This document shows positions 11,703-28,204 of a DNA stretch of 64,000 nt, in pieces. The stretch is from the NCBI GenBank assembly GCA_003820375.1, contig RPQH01000008.1, forward strand, positions 8,567 through 72,566, in the 5' to 3' direction. Position 1 is the stretch's first letter. Every line of letters begins with the position of its first letter. Below the pieces are notes generated by a model that was not told the origin of the DNA, did not search any database, and was given only the letters and a program-made list of their open reading frames with translations. Source of the DNA: Ignavibacteriota bacterium (lineage in GTDB: Bacteria; Bacteroidota; Ignavibacteria; Tepidaquicellales; OLB5). A program made the position numbers and the translations under genes.

Positions 11703-11722
11703 CCTTTAGCTATTTATACCTG

Positions 11723-11797: not shown

Positions 11798-12070
11798 ATG
11801 GAAAAAACTATATTAATAATATTAATAGGTACAAGAAAAGAATCTGCAGTAACAGTACAGCAAGTGTTAACTGCATGGGGATGTATAATTAAAACAAGGT
11901 TAGGGCTTCATGACGGAGTGCTTGAAAACTGCACAAACCAGGGCACAGTAATTTGTGAGCTTTGCGGAACAAAAGAACAGAATGAAGAACTTGCTCACAA
12001 GATTAAAGTGATACAGGGAGTTTCATCTGAGCTTGTAACGGTAGGACTGGAAGAGCCAATTAAGAATTAA
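11798..12070 (+). CDS. TM1266-like small ACT/NikR-C-like protein (putative iron-only hydrogenase system regulator)
   Basis: The ORF track starts at TTG 11765, but ATG 11798 (MEKTILIILIGTRKESAVTVQQVL..RLGLHDG..VICELCG...IQGVSSELV) matches the length and pattern of the TM1266 family as I recall it. Confidence 0.5.
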   Translation: MEKTILIILIGTRKESAVTVQQVLTAWGCIIKTRLGLHDGVLENCTNQGTVICELCGTKEQNEELAHKIKVIQGVSSELVTVGLEEPIKN

Positions 12071-12077
12071 AATCTTT

Positions 12078-12138
12078 GGAGTGCAGTAACCGTGTTACTG
12101 CTATAACATTATTTGCAGTAACACGGTTACTGCACTCC
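12078..12138. repeat. 24-bp perfect inverted repeat (likely bidirectional terminator palindrome)
   Basis: ggagtgcagtaaccgtgttactgc (12078-12101) pairs with gcagtaacacggttactgcactcc (12115-12138) across a 13-nt loop. Each arm is also a self-hairpin. Confidence 0.8.
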
Positions 12139-12144
12139 ATACAC
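12115..12144 (+). repeat. 30-bp direct repeat, left copy
   Basis: gcagtaacacggttactgcactccatacac is identical to 13501-13530. Confidence 0.9.
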
Positions 12145-12172
12145 GCTTTCCGTACTGCCAGTGTCACTTATA

Positions 12173-12204
12173 AAATAGTGAAATGGTGAAATAGTGAAAT
12201 AGTG
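12173..12204. repeat. Octamer tandem repeat (4 units)
   Basis: aaatagtg aaatggtg aaatagtg aaatagtg. Confidence 0.8.
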
Positions 12205-12287
12205 ATTAACAGGGAGTCCTGACAGACCAGAGAGATTTTCAATTAATCCAATGCTTTTTAAATCTTCAATTTCCGAAGGAGCTCGTA

Positions 12288-12351
12288 CTGCCAGTGTTTC
12301 TCCTGGATGTTTTGTAATTATAGAATTAATAAAAATCGATGACACTGGCAG
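12288..12351. repeat. Long-loop hairpin of the CTGYCAGTGT family
   Basis: ctgccagtgt (12288-12297) pairs with acactggcag (12342-12351). A third direct copy, gtactgccagtgtcac, lies at 12152-12167. Confidence 0.6.
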
Positions 12352-12816
12352 AATATGGAAGTACAGGATCCTTTGTTATTTGAAGGAGGGTTAATCATAA
12401 ATCTTATTTAATAATATTCATCACCGGTTAATTGGAGTTTTCAAGGGGTATGCTGTTAATCTCAATCTGGAGTTGTTTATAAAAATAATTACATAATATC
12501 AGTTCATAATTATATATATCAGTAACACCTTGTCTGTGTTCAATTGTAAATCCTCCATTCATCTTAAGCTGACGCTTGCCTGCCTGCCTCAGGCAGGTGT
12601 CTGGTGAATTTTTGTTAATCTAAGTTCTTTCTTTCCCTATCATATTCATCAATTAATCTAAGCTAATCCACATTGTCAAACTAACACCTGACACTGCCCT
12701 GTAATTTTTCAACCTTCCAACCTGTCATTCTTCATTAATTATGACCCCTTGACTGTCTTCAATTATCAATCTTCACCTTTGCGGTCTTAGCGGCTTGGCG
12801 TGGTGGTATATCGGCA

Positions 12817-13467
12817 AAAATTCAGAGTTGGGTTCAAAACAGTGCTAAGTTGGGTTCAAGTTGTGTCGGAGTTGGTATCAAGTTGGTATCAAGTTGGGTT
12901 ATCGTTTTTGGAAAACAGGGGTTAACTCATAGCAGTATAAGCAAATAACTCCGTCAGAAATGTGAGATTTTTGATTTAAGATTTGCGATTTTGAGCCAGA
13001 ATCGCTAATTTTTCATCAAAAAAAAAACTTCACTATATCATTAACCATTATCGCTATGGGAAAAATTTGGTAGCAAATATTTGTCGCTGTTGTTGGGGAG
13101 TTAAAGTAATACTTGAAGTTCATCCGTTTCAATTCCTGACACACCCCTTCCGCTTCGCTCCCTCCCCTCTCGAGAGGGGAATTCTTACCTCTTTATTTAT
13201 CCATGAGCTGAAATTGCTCAAAAAAGCACACTAAACACTCAATACACTCTAAGCACTCCACACACTCCAAACTATTTTTAGTTAAAACTTGACAATAAGC
13301 AATTACTATATTAAATTATACTGATAGTGCTTATATAGCTATATAAGCATAAATAACCGTTCTTTGTTAATATCGAAATGATATAAAGCATGTCGTAATA
13401 TTGTTCGAAAATGCTGCTAACGGATTTGGTTAGATTTTGGAGGGTTCAAAAAAATATGCACTGAAAA
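12817..13467 (+). repeat. ~0.65-kb non-coding repeat, copy 1
   Basis: Aligns along its length with 32584-33223 in the same orientation. The first ~470 nt are very similar by eye and the last ~170 nt are patchy. The track shows no ORF of 60 aa or more. Confidence 0.9.
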
Positions 13468-13500
13468 GTGCATATATATGTAAATCTACCTATTGTTATA

Positions 13501-13530
13501 GCAGTAACACGGTTACTGCACTCCATACAC
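13501..13530 (+). repeat. 30-bp direct repeat, right copy
   Basis: Identical to 12115-12144. It abuts the stop of the TonB-dependent receptor gene. Confidence 0.9.
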
Positions 13531-13531
13531 T

Positions 13532-15913
13532 CTACCAGCTCAATCCAATTTTTGCAAAGAAATTTCTGCCGGGTTCTTGTGTAATTGTTCCCCTGTTAGT
13601 TGATAAATGATTTCTGTATTCTTTGTCAAGAATGTTTTCTATTCCGCCATACAAATTTATTTTCACTCCGCTGAATTTGATAGGCATACTTTGTACATAT
13701 AAGTTTAGTGTAACATACCCGGGAGTTTCAACTTCGCCTGCTGCAATTTTATTTTGCCTGGCAAAAAACATTACAGAGAAATCTAAGTTAGCATATTTAC
13801 CGGCAGCAGCTTTTAATCCAATTGAACCGTTTAACGGCGGTATCTGAGGCAGGTCTAAATCGTTTTCAATATCTCTTCCTCTTACATAAGATACTGTGCT
13901 GTAAAACACAAACTTTTTGTAGAAATTATATTCAAGGTTAGCATCAAAGCCATAGAACCTGGATTTTCCGGCATTGGTCTTTATCATTGCCTGCCTGTTT
14001 TCATATGTACCCGGTATTTCAATCACCAAGTCATTTATTGTATTTAAAAAACCGCTTCCTGTAAACTTGATAACAGGATTAAACACTTTAAATCCTGCAT
14101 CCAGGAATATCCCGTTTTCCGGATTTAAATCAGGATTACCCAGTCTTACAAGGCTGCCAAGATCAATGTACTGGTATCTTTCTTCCAGCGAAGGCGAGCG
14201 GAATGAACGTGCCGCATTAAAGGTGATACTTACATCATTATATAAAGCATACATTGCACCAACATTGGCACTCCACGAAATATCATCTTCGGCTGCAGAA
14301 TTCCAAATGATTTTTTGTCCTGCCGGAGTCCAGTTCCATCCTGTATCATTGGTTATTGTATATTCGGGATTATAAGCAATGTCATTAGTCACTTTTATCT
14401 GGTCAATTCTTCCGCCGATATTTATTTTTAATTTATCTTTGAACAATCTTATTTCATCCTGTGCAAATGCCCCAATGCTCCTGTATGATGAAATCGGTAT
14501 CGGCCTCTCCCCTGTTACCTGTTTTATAGTTTTAATTACAACCGTTCCGGTCGAATCATAATCTTCAATTACCTGTTCTCTTGTTCTCCTGCTGTCGAGG
14601 TCTCTTTGCCATGCATCAAATCCTGCAATTACAAAGTTATACTTTCCCAGCAGCCAGCCCGATTGAAGTGAAAATCCTTTTGTATTGTGGTCTGCCTGCG
14701 GTTTTATGTTTAATACACTCACTTTTTTCTTTAATACATTTCCTGCATAAACCTTTTGCACAATGTGCGGAATATTTTCCACATCCCTGAAAATATACTG
14801 GTAATAAAATTTTGCAGAAACATCTTTAAGTATTTTTGAGATTTGAGATATTTTATACTCCGCACTTAACAAGCTTCTTTCTTCCTTCGGGTAAGTGACA
14901 AGAGCATTATTAGGAAATAGAGGGTACCCGCCGGGAATCCCGACATCTTTTGCAAGATAATACTGGTAATTGATTTTTATTTCATTATTCCTGAAAGGAT
15001 TAACACCGAGTACACCCGAAAAATAATTATCTTTAAAGCCGCTGTTATTAATTTCACTGTTTGGTGTTTTGATATTACCGGCTTTTCTCATTGTTCCGTT
15101 TAGCTTCAGGAACCATCTTTCGGCACCTGCATATAGAAGAAGGTTGCCGCCTGTGCTGTTGTTTACACTGTTGTAATCGCTTAATATTTTGCCGCTGAAA
15201 GTAAACTTGCCTGCATACAGATTGCTCTTTGTAATTATATTTACAACTCCGCCCAATGCTCCCGTGCCGTACAGAGATGACATACCGCCTTTGATTATTT
15301 CAATCCTCTCAATATCGTTAATATCAAAAAGTGATAACCTTGCTGATATATCCGTAGCGGTTTCTATCCTGTTGCCGTCTACAAGTGTAACAATGCTTGA
15401 ACGGTTCATTCCTCTTATGTTAATATCCGTTGCCCAGATTCCGTCCCGTGTTAATGTAACTCCTGCTTTATTTTTCATTAAGTCCGAAGCAGAAACCGGG
15501 TTTCTCTGTGTTATCTCAGAATTATCCACCACCTCAACAGGAAGCGGAATGTTTTTTAATTGTTGTTCATGTCTAAAACTTGTTACAATTATTTCGCCAA
15601 GAGTTATTGATGACTGGTCAATCTTGAATTGAACTCTCAATACTGTATCGGGCAAAACATTTAATGTAAAAGTTTCCTTCTTGTATCCAAGATAAGAAAC
15701 CATAACATCATACTTACCGGCGGGTAAATCCTGAATAAGGAAATGCCCGATTTTATCAGTAAAAACCTTATAATCCAGATTTGATATATAAATAGCTGCA
15801 TCCTGCAATCCTTGTTCTGTATTTGCATCAGTAACATTTCCGCTAATAGCGCCGGTTTGTGCATAGCCAAAATTAATCGCAAATAATAGAAATAAAATTG
15901 GAAGTATTTTCAT
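13532..15913 (-). CDS. TonB-dependent outer-membrane receptor with CarboxypepD_reg-like N-domain
   Basis: 793-aa ORF with a signal peptide. It has a carboxypeptidase-regulatory-like domain (ISGNVTD...YDVMVSYLGYK), a plug region, and a beta-barrel ending in an aromatic residue (..KIGLSW). Confidence 0.9.
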   Translation of the reverse strand: MKILPILFLLFAINFGYAQTGAISGNVTDANTEQGLQDAAIYISNLDYKVFTDKIGHFLIQDLPAGKYDVMVSYLGYKKETFTLNVLPDTVLRVQFKIDQSSITLGEIIVTSFRHEQQLKNIPLPVEVVDNSEITQRNPVSASDLMKNKAGVTLTRDGIWATDINIRGMNRSSIVTLVDGNRIETATDISARLSLFDINDIERIEIIKGGMSSLYGTGALGGVVNIITKSNLYAGKFTFSGKILSDYNSVNNSTGGNLLLYAGAERWFLKLNGTMRKAGNIKTPNSEINNSGFKDNYFSGVLGVNPFRNNEIKINYQYYLAKDVGIPGGYPLFPNNALVTYPKEERSLLSAEYKISQISKILKDVSAKFYYQYIFRDVENIPHIVQKVYAGNVLKKKVSVLNIKPQADHNTKGFSLQSGWLLGKYNFVIAGFDAWQRDLDSRRTREQVIEDYDSTGTVVIKTIKQVTGERPIPISSYRSIGAFAQDEIRLFKDKLKINIGGRIDQIKVTNDIAYNPEYTITNDTGWNWTPAGQKIIWNSAAEDDISWSANVGAMYALYNDVSITFNAARSFRSPSLEERYQYIDLGSLVRLGNPDLNPENGIFLDAGFKVFNPVIKFTGSGFLNTINDLVIEIPGTYENRQAMIKTNAGKSRFYGFDANLEYNFYKKFVFYSTVSYVRGRDIENDLDLPQIPPLNGSIGLKAAAGKYANLDFSVMFFARQNKIAAGEVETPGYVTLNLYVQSMPIKFSGVKINLYGGIENILDKEYRNHLSTNRGTITQEPGRNFFAKIGLSW

Positions 15914-16101: not shown

Positions 16102-17523
16102 ATGATAAACAATACATCAGGAAAAAGGGAATACATTCTACTTACTTTAACGGTCTGTATTGTGCATTTCCTGCTTGGATTAGACATAAATATTGTTTCT
16201 GTCTCACTGCCTACCATATCACAAAGCTTTAATATAACTCCGGCATCAGCCTCAAAAGTTGTATGGATATATTTTCTTGTGCTCACATGTTTTCTTCCGT
16301 TATCGGGAAAGCTTGGTGACCAGTTCGGATTTAAGAAGCTTTATTTACTCGGGATATTCACTTTTCTTGCAGGTGCTGTGTTATGCGGTTTGTCCACATC
16401 ATTTGAAATGCTTGTTGCTTTCCGTATTCTACAGGCAGCAGGAGGTGCAATTTTATTTTCAATCACTCCTGCAATAATTTCTTCTTATCTGCCTGAAGGA
16501 ATGAAAGGAAAAGCATTCGGAATTAATTATGCATTTGTTGCACTTGGGGGAGTAGTGGGCAGAGCTTTCAGCGGTTATTTACTCGATGCATATGGATGGA
16601 GCTCAATATTTTTTATAAATATTATTCCGGGAATTGCTGCATTAGTTCTTGCTTTAAGATATATACCATCAGTCTCTCCCTCAAATAAAAAAGTATTTTT
16701 TGATGTGCTGGGTTCAATTTATATTTTCATAGGATTATTTTTCCTGCTTTTTGCCATTAACAACGGGCAGCAAATGGGATGGATGAATCAATACATAACG
16801 ACATCGTTTATAATAGCTGCAGTATTTATATACTTATTCATTAAGAGGGAAATTGATATTCCTGCACCATTATTTAATCTGAATTACTTAAAAAAGAAAA
16901 AATTCTCGTTCCCGCTAATTTCTTTTTCAGTTGTTTACATTGTTACCAACGGAATGGTTTTTTTATTCCCCTTCTACCTGCAATGGATAAAAAGCTTATC
17001 TAAACAGGAAACCGGATTGCTTATGACTATTCCATCTGTTATGCAGATTGTAAGCGGTTTTTTTGGCGGATATTTATCAGATAAAAAAAGCATAAGGATA
17101 ATTTGTACATACGGAATTATATTAACTTTTCTTTCTTATTTATTCTTCTATTTCCTGGATTCTTCTTCTGATATATTACTCATTATTGCTTCACTATCAC
17201 TTTTCGGAATTGCAATCGGTACATTTATACCTGCCAATACAAACAGGATAATGTCTTATGCAGGAATTGAAGAAAAAGGAAGTATCTCGGCATTAATGCT
17301 GACAGTTGTTAGAACAGGCTCAGCACTTGGAGTGTGTTTTTTTGCCGCAATACTATCGGTTTATATTCCGCAGGCAAATCCAATTACAGCAAATGTTCCA
17401 ATGAACATAATGGAATCAGGTTTTAAAGCAGTGTTTCTGTTTGGAACGATAGTGTGTTTGATTGGGATATATTTTGCAGTAAGATCGGAAGAGAAAGAGG
17501 TTAATCAGTATGAGGTATTATAA
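16102..17523 (+). CDS. MFS transporter (DHA2/EmrB-like, ~14 TMS)
   Basis: 473-aa hydrophobic ORF. The motif LSGKLGDQFGFKK sits after TM2, and the length fits the 14-TMS drug:H+ antiporter class. Confidence 0.85.
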   Translation: MINNTSGKREYILLTLTVCIVHFLLGLDINIVSVSLPTISQSFNITPASASKVVWIYFLVLTCFLPLSGKLGDQFGFKKLYLLGIFTFLAGAVLCGLSTSFEMLVAFRILQAAGGAILFSITPAIISSYLPEGMKGKAFGINYAFVALGGVVGRAFSGYLLDAYGWSSIFFINIIPGIAALVLALRYIPSVSPSNKKVFFDVLGSIYIFIGLFFLLFAINNGQQMGWMNQYITTSFIIAAVFIYLFIKREIDIPAPLFNLNYLKKKKFSFPLISFSVVYIVTNGMVFLFPFYLQWIKSLSKQETGLLMTIPSVMQIVSGFFGGYLSDKKSIRIICTYGIILTFLSYLFFYFLDSSSDILLIIASLSLFGIAIGTFIPANTNRIMSYAGIEEKGSISALMLTVVRTGSALGVCFFAAILSVYIPQANPITANVPMNIMESGFKAVFLFGTIVCLIGIYFAVRSEEKEVNQYEVL

Positions 17524-18886
17524 TCACAAAACTTGTGCCGCATCCTTTTTCATCAGCTAGTTTTGAAGGGCTTTTTACATCAACACTCCATCCGTGCTGT
17601 TCAACAATTTCTTTTACTATCGAGAGACCAAGACCTGTGCCTTCGTATCCTTTGTGCTTAATGTTAGTAGTTCTATAGAATTGCCTGAATATTTTCTGAA
17701 GCTCATTTTCGGGTATACCTATACCGTTATCGCTTACTTCCACTATTATATTGTTATTTTCATCTTCGTTTACTTCAACCAAAACCTTTCCTTCGTTAAA
17801 TGTATATTTCACAGCATTGCCAATCAGGTTTGAAAGTGCAAGGTCAAGAAGGACTTCATCTGCTGATACTTTATATTTCAGGATACGGTTATCGGTAAAT
17901 ACCAGGTTAATATTTTTTGAATGAGCATTTGCGCTTTTTTGTTCTATTGCTTTGCAAATAACCGCTTCAAGCTCCAGCGGTTCTTTTTTAATATTTTCAA
18001 GCAGCTTAAGCTTTGACATCTTCAATATATCACTTATAATTTCTATTCCTTCATCAAGGCGTTTTAATGTTCTTGTGAGCTTTTCTTCAACCTGCGGAGA
18101 AACCGGACCTAAATAATTATTGAGTATTATCTGAAGATATAATTGAGCCGCAACAATAGGTGACTTAATCTCATGAACAACAGCTATTGTATATTTTTGC
18201 TTTGCAGCTTCTGCTTCAAAAAGCTTATCCAGTGTACGCTGTAATTCTTCTTCCCTCTTATATAATTCACGGGCTATGCTGTTTGCTATAAAAATACTCA
18301 CGCCCATCATAAAGCTGAAACATGACGCGTATATAATAAAAAGATTTACATTTCCTCTTACGTCAGGAAACTTCAAACCTGAAATAAACAAAGTATTAAA
18401 CGCACCTGTAAATTGAAGATACCCTGTGATAGCATATATTATTATTATCAACCCAATCAACGGATATATAACCTTACCGGGCATATATAAACTGCCAATA
18501 ATTGCATGGAATATAAAGAACATTGCAAATGGGCTGATTATACCCCCTGTCACATAACAGACAAAAGATAATACTATTAAATCGGCAATAATCTGAATGA
18601 AGGCAAACAGGAAGGGATTAAAAAATTTATCTTCGTCAAGAGTAACTTTTTTCTGGACAGAATTGAATATTAAATTATATCCAAGCATTAATAGAGCAGC
18701 ACCGGTCAAAGAAAATAATTGAACCCGGCTAAGTCCGGCTTGCAGCAAAAACTCAAGTAATAATATCAAGCCTATCAGCATCCCAAACGCACCGAACCTC
18801 AGCTTTATGAACCATAAATTTCTTCTATAAATAAACCTCCAGTAAGGTTTAAATTTAAGTGTCCAATTTATTATAAAAGATTTCAT
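17501..18886 (-). CDS. Membrane sensor histidine kinase
   Basis: 461-aa ORF with a multi-TM N-terminal half, H-box VHEIKSPIV, and N/G boxes (GNAVKYT, DNGIGIP, GTGLGLSIV). Its 3' end overlaps the MFS gene by 23 nt (convergent). Confidence 0.85.
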   Translation of the reverse strand: MKSFIINWTLKFKPYWRFIYRRNLWFIKLRFGAFGMLIGLILLLEFLLQAGLSRVQLFSLTGAALLMLGYNLIFNSVQKKVTLDEDKFFNPFLFAFIQIIADLIVLSFVCYVTGGIISPFAMFFIFHAIIGSLYMPGKVIYPLIGLIIIIYAITGYLQFTGAFNTLFISGLKFPDVRGNVNLFIIYASCFSFMMGVSIFIANSIARELYKREEELQRTLDKLFEAEAAKQKYTIAVVHEIKSPIVAAQLYLQIILNNYLGPVSPQVEEKLTRTLKRLDEGIEIISDILKMSKLKLLENIKKEPLELEAVICKAIEQKSANAHSKNINLVFTDNRILKYKVSADEVLLDLALSNLIGNAVKYTFNEGKVLVEVNEDENNNIIVEVSDNGIGIPENELQKIFRQFYRTTNIKHKGYEGTGLGLSIVKEIVEQHGWSVDVKSPSKLADEKGCGTSFVIIIPHTD

Positions 18887-18899: not shown

Positions 18900-18931
18900 T
18901 AACAAAAGCCGGAGATAGAATCCCCGGCTTT
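18900..18931 (-). terminator. Terminator after hydA
   Basis: On the minus strand: aagccgg / ccggctt stem followed by tttgtt. Confidence 0.55.
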
Positions 18932-18944: not shown

Positions 18945-20837
18945 TTAAGCTATGTATTTTCCTCTTTTTACATAATGCGTATGCAGCAGCTTATGAGAAA
19001 GCTTGCCGCATGGACCGTCTGTTAAGAATTTTTCATAAAGCATCTTAACATAAGGATTTTCATGTGATTTTCTTACAGTCAATCTTTCTTCTTCGGAATA
19101 AATTGCCTGCGCACGTTTTGTCCTAATTTCTTCACTAGTAGGAATTGGCTGACCGCCGCCGCCGATACATCCGCCCGGGCATGCCATTATCTCTATAAAA
19201 TGAACATCGTTCAATTCACCACGCTTTAACATTTCCATAACCAACTTTGCGTTTGCTGTTCCATGTGCTACGATAAATTTTACTTCAACGCCTTCAAGGA
19301 ATTTCCATTCTTCTCTTACGTTTTCTAATTTTACCGATGCCTGTTTTATTCCTTCAAATCCCCTGCATGGCTCAATATTTAAATTCTTGAAGGGTACTTC
19401 CCTGCCGGTTACCAGCTCATATACTGTTCTCAAAGCAGCTTCCATTACACCACCTGTTGCACCGAATATAAGTCCTGCACCTGAAGCTTCACCAAACGGG
19501 CTGTCAAATGTAGTTTCGGGCATTTCGGGTAAATAGATACCTGCTTCTTTTATCATCTTTGCCATTTCTCTTGTAGTCAAACCGTAATCAACATCTTTAA
19601 ATCCTGATGAATTCATCTCAGGCCTGTTGCATTCAAATTTCTTTGCTGCACATGGCATTAAAGCAACCGATACAACATCTGCCGGATCAATACCTGCCTG
19701 CTTGGCATAAAATGTTTTGATAATTGCACCAAACATTTGCTGAGGTGATTTAGCACTTGACATATGGTCAAGATACTGAGGATAAAAATGCTCAATATAT
19801 TTCACCCAACCCGGTGAGCATGATGTAAACTGCGGCAGCCTTACATTCGGGTCTTTATCAACCAATGCTGATTTTAACCTTAGAAGTAATTCTGTTCCTT
19901 CTTCCAATATGGTTAAGTCAGCAGTGAAGTTAGTATCAAATACTGCATCAAAACCAATTCTCTTTAAAGCAGTGTTTAGCTGTCCTGTCATCGAGTGTCC
20001 TGCACCAAGTCCAAATTCCTCGCCTATTGCCGCACGGGGAGAAGGTGCAGTCTGTATTACAACATGTTTCTTCGGGTCATCGATTGCTGACCATATTTCA
20101 TCAGACGGGTCATTTGCATGAAGTGCAGCAGTCGGGCACCTGTTGATACACTGACCGCAATTGATACAAATCACATCAGCAAGAGGTTTATCCATAAATG
20201 TGCTGATATGTGTCTGGTCACCGCGGTGCACTGCTTCAAGCACGCCAACTTCCTGTAAGTCGATACAGGTTCTTACACAGCGTTTGCAAAGAACACATTT
20301 GCTCATATCTCTTATTACCGAAAGTGAAGATTTATCTGTTTCATATTTCGGTTTTGTAACGTGACCGAAAGTATATTTATCCACACCATATTCTTCAGCA
20401 AGCTTTTGAAGTTCGCAGTTCTGGTTCCTGATACAGCTGTAGCATTCGCCGTAGTGTTCACTCAGTAATAAATCAATTATATTCTTTCTTGCTTTTCTTA
20501 CTGTTGGAGTAGATGTTTTTATTTTTATAGGTGATGTAATCGGGAAAGCACATGCTGCCTGTAAGGTTCTTATACCTTCAACCTCGACAACGCATACACG
20601 GCAAACACCGGCCACACAAAGGTCTTCATGATGGCATAATGTAGGTACATGTATCTGGTTAATTTTACATGCTTCAAGAATAGTTGTACCAAAAGGTACG
20701 CTTACTTTCTTTTCATTAATTTCAACACTAATGCTTCCGCCAATTGTATTCAGGTCTTCCTGTTTTTGTATTGTGTGCCCTTTCTGGCTTAAAGGGCTTC
20801 TTGATGTACTGCTTTTATCTGACATACTTGCCTCCAT
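18945..20837 (-). CDS. hydA: [FeFe]-hydrogenase catalytic subunit (multimeric NADH-type, M3-like architecture)
   Basis: 630-aa ORF. It has a 2Fe-2S N-domain, the His-ligated motif HYGECYSCIRNQNC, and two CxxCxxCxxxCP motifs. H-cluster motifs are FTSCSPGW (variant L1), MPCAAKKFE (L2) and EIMACPGGCIGGGGQP (L3). Confidence 0.92.
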   Translation of the reverse strand: MEASMSDKSSTSRSPLSQKGHTIQKQEDLNTIGGSISVEINEKKVSVPFGTTILEACKINQIHVPTLCHHEDLCVAGVCRVCVVEVEGIRTLQAACAFPITSPIKIKTSTPTVRKARKNIIDLLLSEHYGECYSCIRNQNCELQKLAEEYGVDKYTFGHVTKPKYETDKSSLSVIRDMSKCVLCKRCVRTCIDLQEVGVLEAVHRGDQTHISTFMDKPLADVICINCGQCINRCPTAALHANDPSDEIWSAIDDPKKHVVIQTAPSPRAAIGEEFGLGAGHSMTGQLNTALKRIGFDAVFDTNFTADLTILEEGTELLLRLKSALVDKDPNVRLPQFTSCSPGWVKYIEHFYPQYLDHMSSAKSPQQMFGAIIKTFYAKQAGIDPADVVSVALMPCAAKKFECNRPEMNSSGFKDVDYGLTTREMAKMIKEAGIYLPEMPETTFDSPFGEASGAGLIFGATGGVMEAALRTVYELVTGREVPFKNLNIEPCRGFEGIKQASVKLENVREEWKFLEGVEVKFIVAHGTANAKLVMEMLKRGELNDVHFIEIMACPGGCIGGGGQPIPTSEEIRTKRAQAIYSEEERLTVRKSHENPYVKMLYEKFLTDGPCGKLSHKLLHTHYVKRGKYIA

Positions 20838-22032
20838 TCTTTCCCGGATTGAATATCTCGTCCTTAAAATTATCTAAAATTGAAATGAAAGCATTAGGGC
20901 TTGATTGTCCCAGGCCGCACTTGGAAGCAACCTGCATTGTTTTTCCAAGCTCTTTTAGTTGATTAATGTAAGAGAATGTAAATTTATTATTCTCTATCAT
21001 TTCGATACCTTCAAGAAGCTTCACATTACCAATTCTGCAGGGAGTACATTGCCCACAGGATTCTTCAACAAAGAACTCCATAAAATTTTTCAAAATATGG
21101 AGCATGTTCCTGCTCTTATTAAATATCATTATAGAACCACCCGTAGCAACATCTTCATAAGATATGGTTCTATCGAATTGTGATTCAGGAATGCAGATGC
21201 CGGAAGCACCTCCAACCTGTACAGCTTTTGTATCTTTAGCACCTACTATAGTAAGCAGGTCACTAATTTTAATTCCCCATGGCAGTTCATATACGCCCGG
21301 TTTTTCACAATCACCGGATATGGAGAATAATTTAGAGCCGGATGATTTCCCGGTTCCCTGTTTTGCAAACCACTCTCCGCCTTTTACCAATATTTTCGGA
21401 ACGGAAGCTAGAGTTTCGACATTATTCACAGATGTTGGTTTGCCCATAAATCCTGTATTAACCGGGTAAGGAGGACGGTTCCTTGCTTCACCGCGGTTAC
21501 CTTCAAGTGATTCTATTAAAGCTGTTTCTTCTCCGCATACATAAGCTCCTGAACCCATGCGGATAATGATATCAAAGTTAAAGTCTTTTTTCCCCAGTAT
21601 GTTTTTTCCTAAAAGGTTATCTTCACGCATTTTCTTTAAGTAGTCTTCAAGAAAACTAAGCATGTATTCGTATTCACCTCTTAAGTATACTATTCCTTTT
21701 TGTGCTCCAACAGTATATCCGCCGATAACCATGCCGTCAAATACTATTTCAGGATATTCTGTTAAAAGAACGCGGTCTTTGAAAGTACCCGGTTCTCCCT
21801 CGTCAGCATTGCAAACAATATATTTAATATCAGACTTTGCGGCAGCCGTGAGCATCCATTTTGTAGCAGTTGGGAATCCGGCACCGCCTCTGCCTTTTAA
21901 TTTCGATATTTTTAACTCGTATAAAATATCTTCTCTTCCAAGCTTTAGAGCTTTCTCGATACCTTCGCCTCTTTTATAAGAAGAGAAAAGTACCTTGCCT
22001 TCTCTTTGTGTTTTTTTATATACAGATTCCAT
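20815..22032 (-). CDS. hydB: NuoF-like NADH-binding flavoprotein subunit, short form
   Basis: 405-aa ORF with GRGGAGFPT (FMN site) and ESCGQCTPCR (N3-type 4Fe-4S). It has no N-terminal 2Fe-2S domain and no C-terminal 2x[4Fe-4S] domain. Confidence 0.9.
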   Translation of the reverse strand: MESVYKKTQREGKVLFSSYKRGEGIEKALKLGREDILYELKISKLKGRGGAGFPTATKWMLTAAAKSDIKYIVCNADEGEPGTFKDRVLLTEYPEIVFDGMVIGGYTVGAQKGIVYLRGEYEYMLSFLEDYLKKMREDNLLGKNILGKKDFNFDIIIRMGSGAYVCGEETALIESLEGNRGEARNRPPYPVNTGFMGKPTSVNNVETLASVPKILVKGGEWFAKQGTGKSSGSKLFSISGDCEKPGVYELPWGIKISDLLTIVGAKDTKAVQVGGASGICIPESQFDRTISYEDVATGGSIMIFNKSRNMLHILKNFMEFFVEESCGQCTPCRIGNVKLLEGIEMIENNKFTFSYINQLKELGKTMQVASKCGLGQSSPNAFISILDNFKDEIFNPGKNGGKYVR

Positions 22033-22506
22033 TTATTTTATTTCATTAAGTATTTCAACAGCTTTTTCAGGTGTTAAGCGGGTAAAAACCCTGTCATTCA
22101 CCATCATTGCCGGTCCCTGGTCGCACATACCGAGACAATTTGTATATTCAAGTGTTATCTTTTTATCCGGTGTTGTTTCACCGAACGATATTCCAAGCTC
22201 TCTTGTAATAGCGGATTCAACATTTTCTTTGCCTGAAATATCACAGATTATAGTTCTGCACAACCTCACGATATTTCTGCCCCTTGGCTTAGAGTGTAAG
22301 AAAGAATAAAACGTAACTACACTGTAAACCTCAACAGGATGAATATCAAGCTGAAGTGCTATTTCCTGCATTGCGAAATCAGGTACATACCTGTATTTCC
22401 TTTCCACTGCCTGCAGGATAGGCAGCAGAGATGACCTGTCCTTACCGTATTGCTCAACAAGCCGTTCTATCTCTTCGGTTAAAGATGTTCTTTCCGAAAC
22501 TAGCAT
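22033..22506 (-). CDS. hydC: NuoE-like thioredoxin-fold 2Fe-2S subunit
   Basis: 157-aa ORF with Cys pattern CRTIIC...CLGMC. Confidence 0.9.
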   Translation of the reverse strand: MLVSERTSLTEEIERLVEQYGKDRSSLLPILQAVERKYRYVPDFAMQEIALQLDIHPVEVYSVVTFYSFLHSKPRGRNIVRLCRTIICDISGKENVESAITRELGISFGETTPDKKITLEYTNCLGMCDQGPAMMVNDRVFTRLTPEKAVEILNEIK

Positions 22507-22886
22507 ACTTGCTCCTTAGATTTTTTTAACAGATTTTCAACTTTACTAATTAGCTGTGCCGGTGAAATCGGTTTTTCAACAAAATCATCAACAGGAACCA
22601 TTTCACTCTTGCCAAAATCCATACCAACGGTCTTGGAAATTGATGTGTACATAATGATCGGAGTAGTGATTTTTTCTTTTCTTAACCTCTGGGCAAGAAA
22701 GAAGCCATCATCCGGTTCATCCATCATAACATCAAGAATTATAAGATCCGGGGTTTTTTCCTTAATTAAATTGTATGCGTCAGTAGGATTACCTGCGGTA
22801 ATAACCTCATATCCCTTAGCCGATAAAACGAGGGTGCTTGCATCGCGGATATCGGGGTCATCGTCTATTATTGCTATTAAAGCCAT
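22500..22886 (-). CDS. Single-domain (CheY-like) response regulator, first gene of the [FeFe]-hydrogenase operon
   Basis: 128-aa ORF with IIDDDPD...LIILDVMM receiver signature. It overlaps hydC by 7 nt. Confidence 0.85.
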   Translation of the reverse strand: MALIAIIDDDPDIRDASTLVLSAKGYEVITAGNPTDAYNLIKEKTPDLIILDVMMDEPDDGFFLAQRLRKEKITTPIIMYTSISKTVGMDFGKSEMVPVDDFVEKPISPAQLISKVENLLKKSKEQVC

Positions 22887-23042
22887 TTGACCTCCATTTA
22901 TTTACAATACAAAATTACTCACTCCTAACCCCATAAACAATGAGATAAATCATGTTTTTATGTCGGTATATATTATGCATTTATTATTAACTTGAAAGGC
23001 AGGGATTTTTGAGCTAAATTAATTTAATTATGATATCTTAAT

Positions 23043-25031
23043 ATGGGAAAGATATCCACAAAAAGTATTCAGTCACAGTTAATACTGTACTTCACAATTG
23101 CAATTCTTGTACCTGTTATTGTAATAAGCATAATTGCATCTAAGTTCATCTATAACGAAATTACCAACCGTGCCGAAAGCAAAAGTATTTCCGACCTGAA
23201 CTCAGCGGGTGAAATTTATAATCACCGGATATCACAAATTGAAAGCATAACCCGCTTAACCGCAGGCAGAAGCTTTATTATCTCATCTCTGATTGAAAAT
23301 AAAGCCGATACTTTATACAAGGAGCTTCACACCATCCTTCAGAACGAAAAGCTTGATATATTCACTATAGTTGACAAAAACGGCAAGGTTATATGCCGCG
23401 GCAGAAATTCATTCAATTCGGGTGATTATATAACTTCCGATAAATTTATCAAAAGAGTTCTTGAAACAAAAAGCACGGTATCGGGAACCGATATTGTAAG
23501 CCCGGATGAATTGAAAAAAGAAGCATTCGAGCTGGCTGACAGGGCTTATATGGAAGTGAAGCCAACCCTCATGTCAAGGGAAAGGTCTGAAAAATTCGAG
23601 AAAAACGGTATGATGATGAAGTCAGCCTCTCCGTTGTTTGATAAGAATAAGAATATCGTCGGCGTACTGATGTCAGGTGTTCTTTTGAACAGGAATTACG
23701 ATATAGTAGATAAAATTAATAATGTTGTTCATGAAAACGAAGTGTATAAAGGGCAGGATATTGGGACTGTAACAATATTTGAATACGATGTGCGTATTGC
23801 AACCAATGTTAAAAACGAAGACGGTTCGTATGCTGTTTCAACACTTGTTTCGGAAGAAGTGTATGACGAGGTAATCCTTGCCGGGCAAAAGTGGATTGGT
23901 GATGCGTTTGTGGTTAATTCCTGGTATGTATCCGCTTACAAACCGATTAGAGATATTAATGACAGGGTTATCGGTATCTTATATGTGGGAATTTTAAAAC
24001 AGCCGTTCAATGACCTTCTGCTTAATACGATATTAATATTTTCCTCAATAGCAATTGTTACGGGTATAATAATATTTTTCGTAGCGGTGATGTTTGCAAA
24101 AAAGATATCAGCCCCTCTGCGCAAGCTGGAAGAATGGGCAAAACAAATAGCGGACGGTACGTATAAATCCAATATAGCTATTAAAGCGCCGCGTGAGATA
24201 GAAAGCCTTTCTTTGTCGCTAAATTTAATGGCAAAACAGCTTGAACAGGAAAAGTTTGAGCTTGAGAACTGGGCTGAAACTCTTGAGAATAAGGTTAACC
24301 AGAGAACAGAGGAATTAAAGAGGATAAATGACCAGCTTTTCAGGTCAGAGAAGCTTGCATCAATTGGTAAGCTTGCCGCAGGCGTTGCTCACGAGATAAA
24401 TAATCCGCTCACAGGCGTACTGACCAACAGCAGCTTAATGCTTGAAGACCTTGAAGAAAATGACCCGCGAAGAGAAGATTTGCAGGTTGTGGTTAACGAA
24501 ACCATAAGATGCAGGGAAATCGTAAAACGCCTGCTTGATTTTGCCCGGCAGACCAAGCCGCAGAAAAAAATGACCGACCTGAATGCCCTGATAGAGAATA
24601 TTATTCTGCTTGTCAGAAATCAAAGTGCTTTCAGGAATATCATTATCAAAAAAGTACTGGATACTTCTATTCCGCAAATAATGGTTGATGCAGACCAGAT
24701 ACAGCAGGTTTTTATCAATTTCATTCTGAATGCCTCGGAAGCTATGCCAAATGGCGGTCAGCTTGTAGTTAATACATCATTAAACCATGCCCGGGATTAT
24801 ATTGAAATTAAGTTTTCCGACAGCGGCTGCGGTATTTCGGAGAAGGATAAAAGAAGAATTTTTGACCCGTTCTTTACCACAAAACAGCAGGGCACGGGAT
24901 TGGGATTATCGATTAGCCACGGAATAATAGAGAGACATGGAGGAAAAATTATTTTAGACAGTGAATTGGGAAAAGGTACATGTTTCACAATATTTATGCC
25001 GGTAAACTATAACAGTGATATTGATGATTGA
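23043..25031 (+). CDS. Sensor histidine kinase with periplasmic Cache-like domain and HAMP
   Basis: 662-aa ORF with two TM segments flanking a ~290-aa extracytoplasmic domain. H-box is AHEINNPLTG; the ATPase part carries GTGLGLSISHGI. Confidence 0.85.
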   Translation: MGKISTKSIQSQLILYFTIAILVPVIVISIIASKFIYNEITNRAESKSISDLNSAGEIYNHRISQIESITRLTAGRSFIISSLIENKADTLYKELHTILQNEKLDIFTIVDKNGKVICRGRNSFNSGDYITSDKFIKRVLETKSTVSGTDIVSPDELKKEAFELADRAYMEVKPTLMSRERSEKFEKNGMMMKSASPLFDKNKNIVGVLMSGVLLNRNYDIVDKINNVVHENEVYKGQDIGTVTIFEYDVRIATNVKNEDGSYAVSTLVSEEVYDEVILAGQKWIGDAFVVNSWYVSAYKPIRDINDRVIGILYVGILKQPFNDLLLNTILIFSSIAIVTGIIIFFVAVMFAKKISAPLRKLEEWAKQIADGTYKSNIAIKAPREIESLSLSLNLMAKQLEQEKFELENWAETLENKVNQRTEELKRINDQLFRSEKLASIGKLAAGVAHEINNPLTGVLTNSSLMLEDLEENDPRREDLQVVVNETIRCREIVKRLLDFARQTKPQKKMTDLNALIENIILLVRNQSAFRNIIIKKVLDTSIPQIMVDADQIQQVFINFILNASEAMPNGGQLVVNTSLNHARDYIEIKFSDSGCGISEKDKRRIFDPFFTTKQQGTGLGLSISHGIIERHGGKIILDSELGKGTCFTIFMPVNYNSDIDD

Positions 25032-26430
25032 TACAAAAGCCGAAATTTTAATAGTAGATGATGAATTAGTGATTTGCAAAAGCTGCGAAAAGATATTCAA
25101 ACGCTCAGGACATAACACAACTTATGCAACGGGAGGTGTAGAGGCTTTAAATATCCTCGAGACCCGCGAGTTTGATGTTGTGTTCACAGACCTGAAAATG
25201 ATGGATATGGGCGGAATGGAAGTGCTCAGAACCGTTAGGCAGAAATACCCCGATACTCTTGTCGTAATAATAACAGGTTATGCTACCATTGCTTCTGCAG
25301 TTGAAACCATGCGGTACGGTGCATTCGATTACCTGCCGAAACCCTTTACTCCTGCTGAGCTTATTGCCGTGCTGAATAAAGCACTTGAGAAAAGAAAGAT
25401 TATAAAGATAACATCGAATAAATATAATTACTGCCATGAAACAGGATTCGAAGGATTAATAGGCAGAAGCAAAGAGATGTGCGAAGTTTATGACATGATA
25501 AGAAAAGTCGGGGAAACCGACAGTACTGTATTAATTATCGGAGAAAGCGGAACAGGAAAAGACCTAACTGCAAAAGCAATTCACAATGTTAGCAAAAGGA
25601 AAAATGAAAAGTATATTCCGATAGATGTATCTACACTTTCATCCGGCATACTGGAAAGTGAATTGTTTGGTCATGTGAAGGGTGCCTTTACAGGTGCTTA
25701 TACTAGCAAAGAGGGATTGTTCGAAGCGGCAGATAAAGGAACGGTATTTCTTGATGAGATTGGTAACCTGCCTTTGGAAACTCAATCACGCTTACTACGG
25801 GTGCTTCAGCAGAAAGAAATTATTCCCGTTGGCAGTACTGATGTAAAAAAAGTTGATGTAAGATTAATATTTGCTACAAACAGTGACCTGAAACAGCTTG
25901 TAATGAGCAATAAGTTCAGGGAAGACCTATACTATAGAATAAATGTATTCCCCATTAAGCTGCCGCCATTGAGAGTAAGAAGAGAAGATATCCCCGATCT
26001 TGCCCTGCATTTTCTCAGGCATTACTGTGTTTTATCGGAGCGGGTAGTACCGGAAATGGATGTTGAAGCAATGGAGATACTAATGAATTTCCACTGGCCG
26101 GGTAATGTAAGAGAGCTTGAACATACTATGGAGCGTTTAACAATACTTTCTGATGGTCCGGTAATCACACCTGCACATGTATCAGCTGCAATATATAAAG
26201 CAGATGCGCCGATGAAATCAGCCCCAAGGACAGTTGAAGAGCTTAAACAGATTAAGAAACAGATGAGAGATTATTCCATACAGGAAATTGAGAAGATGTT
26301 TATAATAGATGCATTGATGCGAAACAACTGGAACATCTCGCAAGCCGCGCGAGAAGTAAACATGCAGCGTCCAAACTTCCAGGCATTGATGAAGAAGTAT
26401 GGAATAAAGAAACCTGTTACCGGCGTGTAA
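25015..26430 (+). CDS. Sigma-54-dependent response regulator (NtrC family)
   Basis: 471-aa ORF with a receiver domain, an AAA+ domain (GESGTGKD and the GAFTGA loop) and a C-terminal Fis-type HTH. Confidence 0.92.
   Translation: MILMIDTKAEILIVDDELVICKSCEKIFKRSGHNTTYATGGVEALNILETREFDVVFTDLKMMDMGGMEVLRTVRQKYPDTLVVIITGYATIASAVETMRYGAFDYLPKPFTPAELIAVLNKALEKRKIIKITSNKYNYCHETGFEGLIGRSKEMCEVYDMIRKVGETDSTVLIIGESGTGKDLTAKAIHNVSKRKNEKYIPIDVSTLSSGILESELFGHVKGAFTGAYTSKEGLFEAADKGTVFLDEIGNLPLETQSRLLRVLQQKEIIPVGSTDVKKVDVRLIFATNSDLKQLVMSNKFREDLYYRINVFPIKLPPLRVRREDIPDLALHFLRHYCVLSERVVPEMDVEAMEILMNFHWPGNVRELEHTMERLTILSDGPVITPAHVSAAIYKADAPMKSAPRTVEELKQIKKQMRDYSIQEIEKMFIIDALMRNNWNISQAAREVNMQRPNFQALMKKYGIKKPVTGV
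26360..26414 (+). repeat. 55-nt direct repeat, copy 1 (functional 3' end of the sigma-54 regulator gene)
   Basis: 51 of 55 nt are identical to 28227-28281. Confidence 0.9.
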
Positions 26431-26570: not shown

Positions 26571-26915
26571 GTGATAACAAGAAGAAATAGAAACTGGGAA
26601 GAAATGGCTGATCCTGCCGTTGTTAAAGAAATTGGAAATGCTTTAAAACAGATGCGGCTCAATGTAAACCTTTCTCAGGAACAGCTTGCAAAGAAATCCG
26701 GATTGGACAGAACTACAATAAGCCGTATAGAATCAGGCAGAGCTGCAACATTACTTTCACTGGTACAAATATTACGTGCATTAGATAAGCTAAACATAAT
26801 GAACATATTCGTTCAGGAACCGGAGATTAGTCCCATAAAATTATTAAAGCTTCAGGAAAAAAAACGTCAAAGAGCATATCACCATAAATCTAAAGAAACA
26901 GGAAACAATAAATGA
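26571..26915 (+). CDS. hipB: HipB-like XRE-family HTH antitoxin
   Basis: 114-aa ORF with an HTH (LSQEQLAKKSGLDRTTISRIESG). It overlaps hipA by 4 nt. Confidence 0.8.
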   Translation: MITRRNRNWEEMADPAVVKEIGNALKQMRLNVNLSQEQLAKKSGLDRTTISRIESGRAATLLSLVQILRALDKLNIMNIFVQEPEISPIKLLKLQEKKRQRAYHHKSKETGNNK

Positions 26916-28204
26916 ATACTGTTGCAAGAGTAAATATATGGGGTATGATGGTCGGGGCTATTGCGTGGCGTGATGAAACAGGATATGCAGTTTTTGAATT
27001 TGACCCTGACTTCATTAAAAAGGGAGTAAACTTAGCCCCATTAAAAATGCCATTAGAGGAAGCATTAAATGGAAGAATGATTTATTCATTCCCTGAATTA
27101 AATAATACTACATTTAAAGGATTACCGGGAATGTTGGTTGAAAGTTTGCCTGACAGATTTGGAAATACGATTATTGATGCATGGCTTGCACGCCGGGGAG
27201 GAGAACAAAATTTTAATTCTGTAGAAAGGTTATGTTATATTGGTAAAAGAGGGATGGGAGCTCTTGAGTTTGAACCGGTAATTCCGTTAATAGATGATGT
27301 TTCGGAATCAATTCAAATAAGTGAACTTGTTAACCTGACCAAAGAAATACTTAATGAAAGAAAAGATCTCGCTGTTAATATCCACGATGAAACAACAGAT
27401 GGATTATTGAAAATAATAAGAGTCGGAACATCGGCGGGAGGCAACAGAGCGAAAGCAATTATTGCATATAATGAAAACACCGGTGATGTCCGTTCCGGAC
27501 AGATTGACGGATTAAAGGACTATAGCTATTGGATTATAAAATTTGATGGTATTAATGATAAAGAATTAGGTGATCCGAAAGGTTATTGCAAAATTGAATA
27601 TGCATATTACCTTATGGCGACAGATTGCGGAATAATTATGACTGAATGTAAAACGCTGAATGAAAACCACCGCACTCACTTTATGACAAAAAGGTTTGAC
27701 CGTGACGGAATAAATAAGATTCATATGCAGTCTTTATGTTCGATAGCACATTTTGATTTCAACTTAGCAGGAGCATATTCGTATGAACAGGCATTTCAAA
27801 TAATGCGAAAGCTGAAACTGCAATATAGTGACCATGAACAATTGTACAGGAGAATGGTATTTAATGTAATAGCAAGAAATCAGGATGATCATACTAAGAA
27901 CATTTCTTTTCTAATGGATAAAGCAGGAAAATGGGGTTTATCACCTGCATATGATGTAACTTATGCTTACAACCCTGATAATATTTGGCTGCGTTCACAT
28001 CAAATGTCAATAAATGGAAAACGGGATGATATAACCGGGAATGATTTAATTGAAGTCGCTGAAAATATGAATATAAAAAAGCCGAAAGAAATTATACAGA
28101 TTGTTTTGGAAACGGTTTCCTGCTGGCGTGAGTATGCAAAAAAAGCAAATGTTAATGCAGAACATCAAAAAAAGATTTATAATGCTTTACAATTGAAAAT
28201 ATAG
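26912..28204 (+). CDS. hipA: HipA-family serine/threonine kinase toxin
   Basis: 430-aa ORF with the catalytic motif QDDHTKNISF and HipA N-terminal coupling-domain features. Confidence 0.9.
   Translation: MNTVARVNIWGMMVGAIAWRDETGYAVFEFDPDFIKKGVNLAPLKMPLEEALNGRMIYSFPELNNTTFKGLPGMLVESLPDRFGNTIIDAWLARRGGEQNFNSVERLCYIGKRGMGALEFEPVIPLIDDVSESIQISELVNLTKEILNERKDLAVNIHDETTDGLLKIIRVGTSAGGNRAKAIIAYNENTGDVRSGQIDGLKDYSYWIIKFDGINDKELGDPKGYCKIEYAYYLMATDCGIIMTECKTLNENHRTHFMTKRFDRDGINKIHMQSLCSIAHFDFNLAGAYSYEQAFQIMRKLKLQYSDHEQLYRRMVFNVIARNQDDHTKNISFLMDKAGKWGLSPAYDVTYAYNPDNIWLRSHQMSINGKRDDITGNDLIEVAENMNIKKPKEIIQIVLETVSCWREYAKKANVNAEHQKKIYNALQLKI

Follow-up and report, generated by a model that had tools for sequence, protein, structure and literature searches.

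Hyd1ABC of Syntrophomonas wolfei and HydAB of Syntrophus aciditrophicus are NADH-dependent, non-bifurcating hydrogenases whose beta subunits lack the extra Fe-S domains (Losey et al., 2017, PMC5626996; Losey et al., 2020, PMC7311640). Non-bifurcating homologues have also been described as being without clusters B2-B5 and a conserved His ligand (Schut et al., 2022). In the 2025 NfnABC structure paper, the flavobicluster B1-FMN-C1 (FMN, flavin mononucleotide) was found in non-bifurcating enzymes too, which lack B2-B5, and B3/B4 were reported to be essential for bifurcation. Here we compare two HydB paralogs encoded in a 64,000-nucleotide stretch of an Ignavibacteriota genome (GenBank assembly GCA_003820375.1, contig RPQH01000008.1, positions 8,567 to 72,566), which is referred to below as the window. 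The short HydB (405 amino acids) is encoded next to the catalytic subunit of an [FeFe]-hydrogenase, and the long HydB (608 amino acids) in an operon of [NiFe]-hydrogenase and Hdr genes. The original prediction for this locus took the former for part of a simple NADH-linked hydrogenase and the latter for a bifurcation-competent HydB recruited to the [NiFe]/Hdr system; its account of the S. wolfei Hyd1ABC literature was accurate and agrees with the papers of Losey and co-workers.

Four criteria separate bifurcating from non-bifurcating beta subunits, the latter having Thr or Ser at position 232 and Lys, Ser or Ala at position 234 of Thermotoga maritima HydB (TmHydB; Losey et al., 2020). The diagnostic positions in Table S1 of that study are TmHydB 232, 234, ~312 and 427-431, and the same table lists YP_005845236 of Ignavibacterium album (T, K, Y, GGASG) among the predicted non-bifurcating NADH-dependent enzymes. 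The FMN-site Phe/Tyr is placed at TmHydB 367 in the main text and at ~312 in Table S1. Counting along the alignment to 7p5h_B gave F312 (in GAGAF) and V367, so the position in Table S1 is right.

Short HydB and its [FeFe]-hydrogenase partners

Pfam recognizes only two domains in the short HydB, Complex1_51K (E = 9e-40) and NADH_4Fe-4S (E = 9e-25). The coordinates of the open reading frame (ORF) were exact, and the N-terminal [2Fe-2S] domain (B5) and C-terminal 2x[4Fe-4S] domain (B3/B4) are absent, as had been noticed at the outset; there is no [Fe-S] domain besides the NuoF-type [4Fe-4S]. The only clustered cysteines are C326, C329, C332 and C372, which correspond to the B1/N3 ligands of the NuoF-type [4Fe-4S] cluster. 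When aligned to the B2/Zn positions of Acetomicrobium mobile HydB, the short protein has Asn in place of C438 and Glu in place of C476, while H525, C531 and C536 lie past its C-terminus.

The signature residues follow the same pattern. At the NADH site (TmHydB 232 and 234) the short HydB reads DEGEPGTFKDR (T, K), whereas T. maritima has DEGDPGAFMNR (A, M). At the FMN site (TmHydB ~312, equivalent to Y180 of Nqo1) it reads GSGAYVCGEE with Tyr, as opposed to GAGAFVCGEE with Phe, and at 427-431 it carries GGASG instead of GGPSG. The short HydB thus shows the non-bifurcating NADH-dependent state for all four sequence criteria (no extra [Fe-S] domains, T/K, Y, and no GGPSG; Losey et al., 2020). Of the features of the bifurcating BfuBC core (B2/Zn ligands, B3/B4, B5 and A202/M204/F; Schut et al., 2022) it has none, and T/K/Y stand where A/M/F would be. 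Its NADH/FMN motifs are intact, CGEE included, and because CGEE is retained the predicted cofactor is NADH and not NADPH.

These states are conserved among homologues. In the best 120 homologues among 5.8 billion proteins, T/K is present in 119, Y in all, and GGASG in 118; all are 397-406 amino acids long and 78-100% identical, with the identical two Pfam domains, and the named entries belong to Ignavibacteria, Melioribacter and Rosettibacter. A similar picture emerged when 1.84 billion representatives (50%-identity clusters) were searched exhaustively with HMMER: the ~30 clusters nearest to the short HydB are all T/K/Y and, except for one (P0251), without a Cys-rich tail, and no A/M/F protein carrying a ferredoxin tail is met before rank 31. 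The nearest relatives outside Ignavibacteria (~50% identity) are NuoE::NuoF fusions, also of the T/K/Y type.

The short HydB is encoded together with HydC and an H-cluster-bearing HydA (Table 1). HydC has four cysteines, at positions 83, 88, 124 and 128. Pfam matches in HydA comprise Fer2_4, NADH-G_4Fe-4S_3, two Fer4 domains, Fe_hyd_lg_C (E = 1e-88) and Fe_hyd_SSU, so that the M3 set is complete, with a [2Fe-2S] cluster, a His-ligated [4Fe-4S] cluster, two further [4Fe-4S] clusters, the H-domain and a small-subunit-like tail. The H-cluster motifs L1 (TSCSP, 338), L2 (MPCAAK, 394) and L3 (EIMACPGGCIGG, 549) are intact, and the best PDB match is HydA1 of Acetobacterium woodii (7q4v_A, E = 1.6e-184).

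We consider it probable, on this sequence evidence, that the product of the response regulator-hydC-hydB-hydA unit is a cytoplasmic heterotrimer, an [FeFe]-hydrogenase that belongs to the NAD(H)-linked class without bifurcation. This agrees with the first view of it as a simple NADH-linked hydrogenase, which is backed by the domain loss, by T/K/Y/GGASG, by the missing B2 ligands and by the position in the HydB tree; NADH-linked function, like NADH-only activity and physiology, is still a prediction. In the proposed mechanism, NADH would donate a hydride to FMN in HydB, from where electrons would pass singly through the HydB [4Fe-4S] cluster (B1/N3) and the [2Fe-2S]/[4Fe-4S] chain of HydA to the H-cluster for proton reduction. 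HydC would provide the NuoE-type [2Fe-2S] only. No low-potential ferredoxin branch, and hence no bifurcation or confurcation, is expected because HydB is without the C-terminal 2x[4Fe-4S] docking domain, the N-terminal [2Fe-2S] cluster and the B2/Zn site. The reaction would be reversible: NADH could drive H2 evolution only where the H2 pressure is very low, and otherwise the enzyme would take up H2 to form NADH.

A neighbour-joining tree of HydB was computed from 19 sequences and 362 columns with 200 bootstraps. It was anchored by typed bifurcating HydBs of T. maritima, A. woodii and A. mobile (from PDB alignments), and by two typed non-bifurcating proteins, E. coli NuoF and S. wolfei Hyd1B, the latter located in a genome scan as a NuoF adjoining an H-cluster HydA. 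Five sequences predicted as non-bifurcating by Losey and co-workers, I. album among them, and long and short forms from Ignavibacteria were also included. The typed bifurcating HydBs and the long HydB of the window fall into one clade (98% bootstrap) with the short HydB outside it, and the short HydB joins the short forms of I. album and Rosettibacter with 100% bootstrap. The short HydB is ~41% identical to S. wolfei Hyd1B, 39.5% to E. coli NuoF and 42-46% to bifurcating HydBs. A close kinship with S. wolfei Hyd1B was rejected on the basis of the 41% identity and the lack of a shared grouping in the tree. The short forms are thus not one tight family, and the function is assigned by architecture and signature residues, not by close homology. 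Short HydBs of the non-bifurcating type were not monophyletic in this tree, and loss or gain of the extra Fe-S domains of HydB may have happened repeatedly.

Several points weigh against the assignment to the non-bifurcating class. In sequence identity, the short HydB is about as far from the typed S. wolfei Hyd1B as from NuoF or the bifurcating HydBs, and the short HydBs of Syntrophomonadaceae have the bifurcating clade (82%), not the Ignavibacteria short clade, as their sister group. The tree itself is a neighbour-joining tree of 19 sequences, not a maximum likelihood tree. The GGPSG criterion is leaky, as 13 T/K/Y representatives also carry this motif. The minimal bifurcating flavobicluster B1-FMN-C1 is present in this HydABC too, the closest match of its HydA is HydA1 of bifurcating enzymes, and HydA could in principle take electrons from ferredoxin directly, like monomeric CpI.

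Two of these points, the flavobicluster as the proposed minimal bifurcation site and the kinship of HydA with HydA1 of bifurcating complexes, would also fit a HydABC that still bifurcates or confurcates; a HydD-like or ferredoxin-like subunit from another locus would then provide the ferredoxin-docking clusters in trans, or ferredoxin would dock on HydA. A HydD-like protein is encoded in the window, although in the [NiFe]/Hdr operon, and the 2013 Melioribacter roseus genome paper took all three [FeFe] enzymes of that organism as bifurcating. However, the cassette common to the window and Rosettibacter holds no ferredoxin-domain gene, T/K/Y at the NADH/FMN site are non-bifurcating states, and the typed enzymes of this architecture, from S. 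wolfei and S. aciditrophicus, work without ferredoxin. Deletion of B3/B4 abolishes bifurcation by HydABC of Thermoanaerobacter kivui, as cited in the NfnABC structure paper. We therefore regard bifurcation by this trimer as unlikely.

Even less probable is a trimer that chiefly senses H2 or has a regulatory function, with its output going to the two-component system on either side, in place of a metabolic role. Response-regulator and histidine-kinase genes do flank hydCBA in the window and in Rosettibacter, which has a HydS-type sensor kinase next to them, but HydA has kept its catalytic L1/L2/L3 motifs, including the proton-relay Cys, in a variant shared with the active A. woodii HydA1 and with S. 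wolfei Hyd1A. An NADH-oxidizing partner is present, and there are no PAS or kinase fusions as in the sensory group C/D enzymes.

The integrity of the 405-amino-acid ORF is evident from its junctions: the ATG of hydB follows directly on the stop codon of hydC, and the end of hydB overlaps the hydA start by 23 nucleotides, and at junctions this tight there is therefore neither space nor an adjacent frame for lost HydB domains. In the cultured Rosettibacter firmus, a cassette of response regulator, hydC (157), hydB (398), hydA (638) and histidine kinase matches that of the window. Truncation, a frameshift or a sequencing error was rejected on the strength of the junction sequence, the 120 homologues of the same length and this cassette. 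Nothing except the length gap to the 608-amino-acid paralog suggests that the ORF was cut short in assembly or sequencing, or that it is a long HydB decaying into a pseudogene. Either reading is hardly tenable for an ORF whose start and stop are closely coupled to hydC and hydA, whose FMN/NADH/[4Fe-4S] motifs are all intact, and whose homologues of 397-406 amino acids come from many independent assemblies and one cultured isolate. Neither of the two outcomes that the original prediction had named as contrary to it, a truncated ORF or a short HydB placed among proven bifurcating enzymes, was found.

Two features of HydA were also noted. Its L1 motif (residues 338-342) reads TSCSP where the textbook form is TSCCP, and the proton-relay Cys is retained. 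TSCSP is found as well in S. wolfei Hyd1A, in A. woodii HydA1 (for which a structure has been solved) and in the HydA partners of short and long HydBs. It was considered as a sign of a defective H-cluster and rejected, the same variant being present in the typed S. wolfei Hyd1A and A. woodii HydA1. Since it occurs with both short and long HydBs, it is a common natural variant and no marker of the non-bifurcating class. In addition, residues 1 to ~35 form a Ser/Lys/Gln-rich extension ahead of the [2Fe-2S] domain that is not found in the 574-amino-acid S. wolfei Hyd1A. Candidate start codons are the ATGs at 20837 and 20825, and the Rosettibacter partner HydA is comparably long (638 amino acids).

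The transcription unit begins with a response-regulator gene, the stop codon of which overlaps the hydC start; an equivalent gene precedes hydC in R. firmus, and a 486-amino-acid histidine kinase takes the equivalent place downstream of hydA there. The sequence TAATTTTG at 22910-22917 (- strand), ~24 nucleotides upstream of the response-regulator ATG, fits the Bacteroidetes-type -7 promoter consensus TAnnTTTG. A scan of the region with the sigma-70 promoter consensus gave matches at chance level (19 found, 19.4 expected). Genes at 23043-26430 (+ strand), transcribed divergently from the hydrogenase operon, encode a histidine kinase of the Cache/HAMP type and a response regulator that depends on sigma-54. 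The two-component genes flanking hydCBA may control its expression. In R. firmus (GCA_036860695.1, positions 987-14659), two hydCBA sets lie in one 14-kb block, one of the canonical [FeFe] type with a long HydB (661 amino acids) and one of the short-HydB type, together with a HydS-type hydrogenase-domain::histidine-kinase fusion and several response regulators. This arrangement suggests H2-sensing control over which hydrogenase is made.

Long HydB and the [NiFe]/Hdr operon

The long HydB has both domains that are missing from the short one, as first noted. Pfam identifies an N-terminal thioredoxin-like [2Fe-2S] region, an SLBB domain and C-terminal Fer4 motifs, and the protein aligns over its full length with solved bifurcating HydBs (7t2r_B, the best PDB match, E = 1e-241; 7q4v_B, E = 2e-237). 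Across 120 orthologues, A/M/F/GGPSG and the cysteines of B1, B3, B4 and B5 are conserved, with the first two N-terminal cysteines missing in 7 of the 120. Four of the five B2/Zn ligands are kept (H525, C438, C531 and C536), and C476 is replaced by Thr or Ser in every orthologue, the Thr/Ser at ~483 corresponding to the C476 ligand of A. mobile.

The NAD(H) pocket is also altered. In all 120 orthologues E287, at the position of E. coli NuoF E183, is replaced by Ser, and F307 by His. The corresponding motifs, at residues ~283-305 of the window protein, are CGES and not CGEE, and PRAKYVHT and not PRxxPPFP, so that the adenine-stacking Phe has become His. A conserved insertion of eight residues, GDVSxDxW, lies at 347-354. 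Because the NAD(H) pocket is altered and one B2/Zn ligand has changed, competence of the long HydB for NADH/ferredoxin bifurcation is not assured. The remodelled pocket may reflect a changed pyridine-nucleotide specificity, possibly for NADP(H). In engineering work of Morina and co-workers from 2011, substitutions of NuoF E183 reportedly shifted complex I towards NADPH. NADP(H) is offered here only as a hypothesis.

The operon that holds the long HydB comprises 17 genes in conserved order (35589-51208). HdrC-, HdrB- and HdrA-like proteins, MvhD, and the small and large [NiFe] subunits were all found in it, which bears out the [NiFe]/Hdr neighbourhood described originally. HdrA is encoded in two parts. 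The N-half aligns to residues 11-266 of HdrA in 8rvu_a (E = 2e-96) and is 288-290 amino acids long in two other Ignavibacteria genomes (L003 and L004). The C-half lies 6.5 kb downstream, with the regulatory cassette, nuoE, hydD and the long hydB in between, and the split falls inside the inserted ferredoxin domain of HdrA. The C-half is joined in-frame to a BfuA/NuoG-like stub of the [2Fe-2S]/[4Fe-4S] type: residues 2-187 of the fusion protein match the Wor-Bfu BfuA stub (9mqx_A, E = 4e-37), and residues 201-585 correspond to HdrA 276-653 of 8rvu_a (E = 3e-111). Nearly all of 120 homologues of the fusion are 586-589 amino acids long, with a maximum of 615. The order of the whole operon is conserved in L003 and L004, where the fusion proteins are 83% and 71% identical to that of the window.

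Among the remaining subunits, MvhD and the [NiFe] proteins match FlpD (E = 1e-52), Oxidored_q6 and NiFeSe_Hases. The large subunit, with RICGVC and DPCFGCATH motifs, is about equally close to A. mobile HydL (7t2r_D, E = 2e-117) and MvhA (5odc_F, E = 1e-114). The HydS-like protein cannot bind a canonical H-cluster because all three H-cluster motifs are absent. HycI-type protease genes are located at both ends of the operon (35589-36179 and 50729-51208); the upstream match is weak (E = 2e-05) and its position is kept in L003 and L004.

Table 1. Features of the [FeFe]-hydrogenase cassette and the [NiFe]/Hdr region in window coordinates.
Feature	Position	Strand	Evidence
Histidine kinase, 461 aa, downstream of hydA, conserved cassette partner	17501-18886	-	Pfam HisKA/HATPase_c
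Terminator-like hairpin (putative), 12-bp stem and T-run, directly 3' of hydA stop	18905-18931	-	Consensus match only
HydA, M3-type [FeFe]-hydrogenase catalytic subunit, 630 aa	18945-20837	-	Pfam and H-cluster motifs
Short HydB, NuoF-like, 405 aa, FMN/NADH site and single [4Fe-4S]	20815-22032	-	Pfam, motifs, homologues
HydC, NuoE-like, 157 aa, one [2Fe-2S] (C1 cluster)	22033-22506	-	Pfam 2Fe-2S_thioredx, E 8.7e-49
Response regulator, single-domain, first gene of hydCBA transcription unit	22500-22886	-	Pfam Response_reg, E 1.6e-22
HdrC-like (227 aa, 2x CxxCxxCxxxC) and HdrB-like (291 aa, CCG domains)	36193-37766	+	Conserved in L003, L004
Split HdrA N-half, 288 aa: N-domain cluster, FAD (flavin adenine dinucleotide) GGGxSG motif, first ferredoxin motif	37773-38639	+	
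Regulatory cassette: DRTGG, HATPase, HydS-like, DRTGG-like, PHP, HATPase	38640-42367	+	Same order in L003, L004
HydS-like protein, 445 aa	39428-40765	+	Fe_hyd_lg_C, E 3e-24; ferredoxin and C-terminal 'FeS' domains
BfuC/HydC (150 aa) and HydD-like thioredoxin-fold protein (129 aa)	42376-43226	+	2Fe-2S_thioredx, E 2.7e-51 and E 4.5e-06
Long Bfu-type HydB, 608 aa	43253-45079	+	Pfam, PDB alignments, signatures
Fusion protein, 587 aa: BfuA/NuoG-like stub (1-~190) and HdrA C-half (~200-585)	45091-46854	+	
MvhD (143 aa), [NiFe] small subunit (328 aa, 16 Cys), large subunit (491 aa)	46896-50021	+	
HycI-type maturation protease and HypA/B/F/D/E maturation genes	50729-58141	+	

The proposal that a bifurcation-competent HydB had been recruited to the [NiFe]/Hdr system stands in part. 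The location and the Bfu-type nature of the protein hold, whereas no sign of its transfer from the [FeFe] enzyme was seen, and its competence is not assured, as set out above. Recruitment is not demonstrable. Relatives, among them Rosettibacter, I. album and M. roseus, also keep an [FeFe] HydABC with a long HydB. The long HydBs linked to [NiFe]/Hdr form a distinct clade, 64% identical to the [FeFe]-linked long HydB of Rosettibacter. The combination of a long HydB with a [NiFe] hydrogenase is already known from NiFe-HydABCSL of A. mobile.

Most NiFe-Bfu enzymes are assigned to Synergistetes, Halorhabdus having archaeal versions, and a co-occurrence of Bfu with HdrA is proposed only for Bam-Bfu (Schut et al., 2022). 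Full-text literature searches returned no description of the split-HdrA/Bfu/Mvh arrangement. For an Hdr-linked NiFe-Bfu, the search retrieved only a plain annotation of one Ignavibacteriae metagenome-assembled genome (MAG) as 'group 3c MvhADG/HdrABC' (Kadnikov, 2020) and an unrelated MetVF-Hdr cluster.

We tentatively suggest that the operon (35589-51208) could encode a single undescribed 'Mvh-Hdr-Bfu' super-complex that is widespread in Ignavibacteria. In it, an Mvh-type [NiFe] hydrogenase and a split-HdrA module (the FAD bifurcation site) would be hard-wired to BfuBC (the FMN/Fe-S bifurcation site) through the BfuA-stub::HdrA-C fusion, with the remodelled pocket possibly serving NADP(H). The two enzymes of the window would then divide the work: the simple NADH:H2 [FeFe] enzyme would balance NADH, and the two-site machine would couple H2, ferredoxin, a pyridine nucleotide and some disulfide. 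Should the products of the Mvh, split-Hdr and Bfu genes assemble together, nature would have fused two bifurcation families that differ in mechanism, and the complex would offer a tractable bacterial system in which to study their coupling.

Annotation, energetics and other window genes

The prediction for the short HydB is sound but not new, because its I. album orthologue has already been listed as predicted non-bifurcating; the [FeFe] enzyme is a further member of a published class that had been predicted for this phylum. The split-HdrA/Bfu/Mvh operon is the more unusual of the two findings. The value of the former lies in annotation accuracy. [FeFe]-hydrogenases with a short HydB are routinely labelled as bifurcating, as in the M. 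roseus genome paper, or as '[NiFe] hydrogenase diaphorase' in Joint Genome Institute product names. Treating them as NADH-only changes the predicted energetics of fermentation. Production of H2 from NADH alone would be workable only at a few tens of Pa H2, which implies reliance on H2 scavengers or use of the enzyme in H2 uptake. Models of community H2 flux would be affected, since Ignavibacteria make up an abundant group in digesters run anaerobically, in anammox granules and in aquifers of the subsurface.

The window is AT-rich. Outside the two hydrogenase regions, it encodes a HipA-like toxin kinase and several secreted proteins with C-terminal sorting domains of the type IX secretion system (26912-28204; 28521-30287; 58931-63830). 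Three adjacent ORFs of ~550 amino acids were observed on the - strand, one of them at 62256-63830; the other two were scanned and encode SBBP beta-propeller repeat proteins. These genes are in keeping with a Bacteroidota/Ignavibacteriota origin.

Comparison with described complexes

Hyd1ABC of S. wolfei has the same organization as the trimer of the window: three separate subunits, a HydB of ~405 amino acids with FMN and one [4Fe-4S], a HydC with one [2Fe-2S] and an M3-type HydA. The cofactor layout is identical (Table S7), and T/K/Y, the lack of GGPSG and the HydA L1 motif TSCSP are shared. The two differ in that core identity is only ~41%, GGTSG stands opposite the GGASG of the short HydB, and the S. 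wolfei protein belongs to another deep lineage in the tree. In addition, the Ignavibacteria HydA is ~55 amino acids longer, and two-component genes flank the operon in the window. The I. album protein YP_005845236 (409 amino acids) is far closer, with 79% core identity, T/K/Y/GGASG, membership of the same phylum and a sister grouping at 100% bootstrap, but it comes from a separate species or MAG and its non-bifurcating status is a prediction as well. HydAB of S. aciditrophicus, typed as non-bifurcating, is a HydC::HydB fusion, the architecture of the nearest relatives of the short HydB outside Ignavibacteria, and is likened to the window enzyme by architecture; HydC and HydB are separate polypeptides in the window.

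The bifurcating HydABC complexes of T. maritima (7p5h), A. woodii (7q4v) and T. kivui (8a6t) have homologous HydA and HydC subunits and a homologous NuoF core of HydB. The short HydB differs from theirs in being without B5, B2/Zn and B3/B4, and in having T/K/Y instead of A/M/F.

For the [NiFe]/Hdr operon, NiFe-HydABCSL of A. mobile (7t2r) shares hisK- and hydD-like genes and provides the best PDB match of both the long HydB and the large subunit. However, it has five subunits and no Hdr or MvhD, and its HydA carries four N-terminal clusters and a hydrogenase domain without an H-cluster; the 587-amino-acid fusion matches this HydA (7t2r_A) only at the N-terminus, in two stretches, best on residues 2-94. 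What sets the window operon apart is the BfuA stub::HdrA C-half fusion, MvhD, HdrB, HdrC, the HdrA N-half, the Cys-rich small subunit and the altered HydB pocket. All Mvh and Hdr subunits of the methanogen MvhADG-HdrABC complex (group 3c, 5odc) are recognizable in the operon. The methanogen complex has one intact FAD-binding HdrA, whereas HdrA of the window is divided, its N-half being a protein of 288 amino acids and its C-half a part of the BfuA-stub fusion, and a NuoE/NuoF module is embedded in the Mvh-Hdr operon. A truncated BfuA stub that links BfuBC to another redox module, the Type 2 Bfu design, is found in Bam-Bfu and Wor-Bfu (9mqx), and a BfuA stub is encoded in the window operon too.

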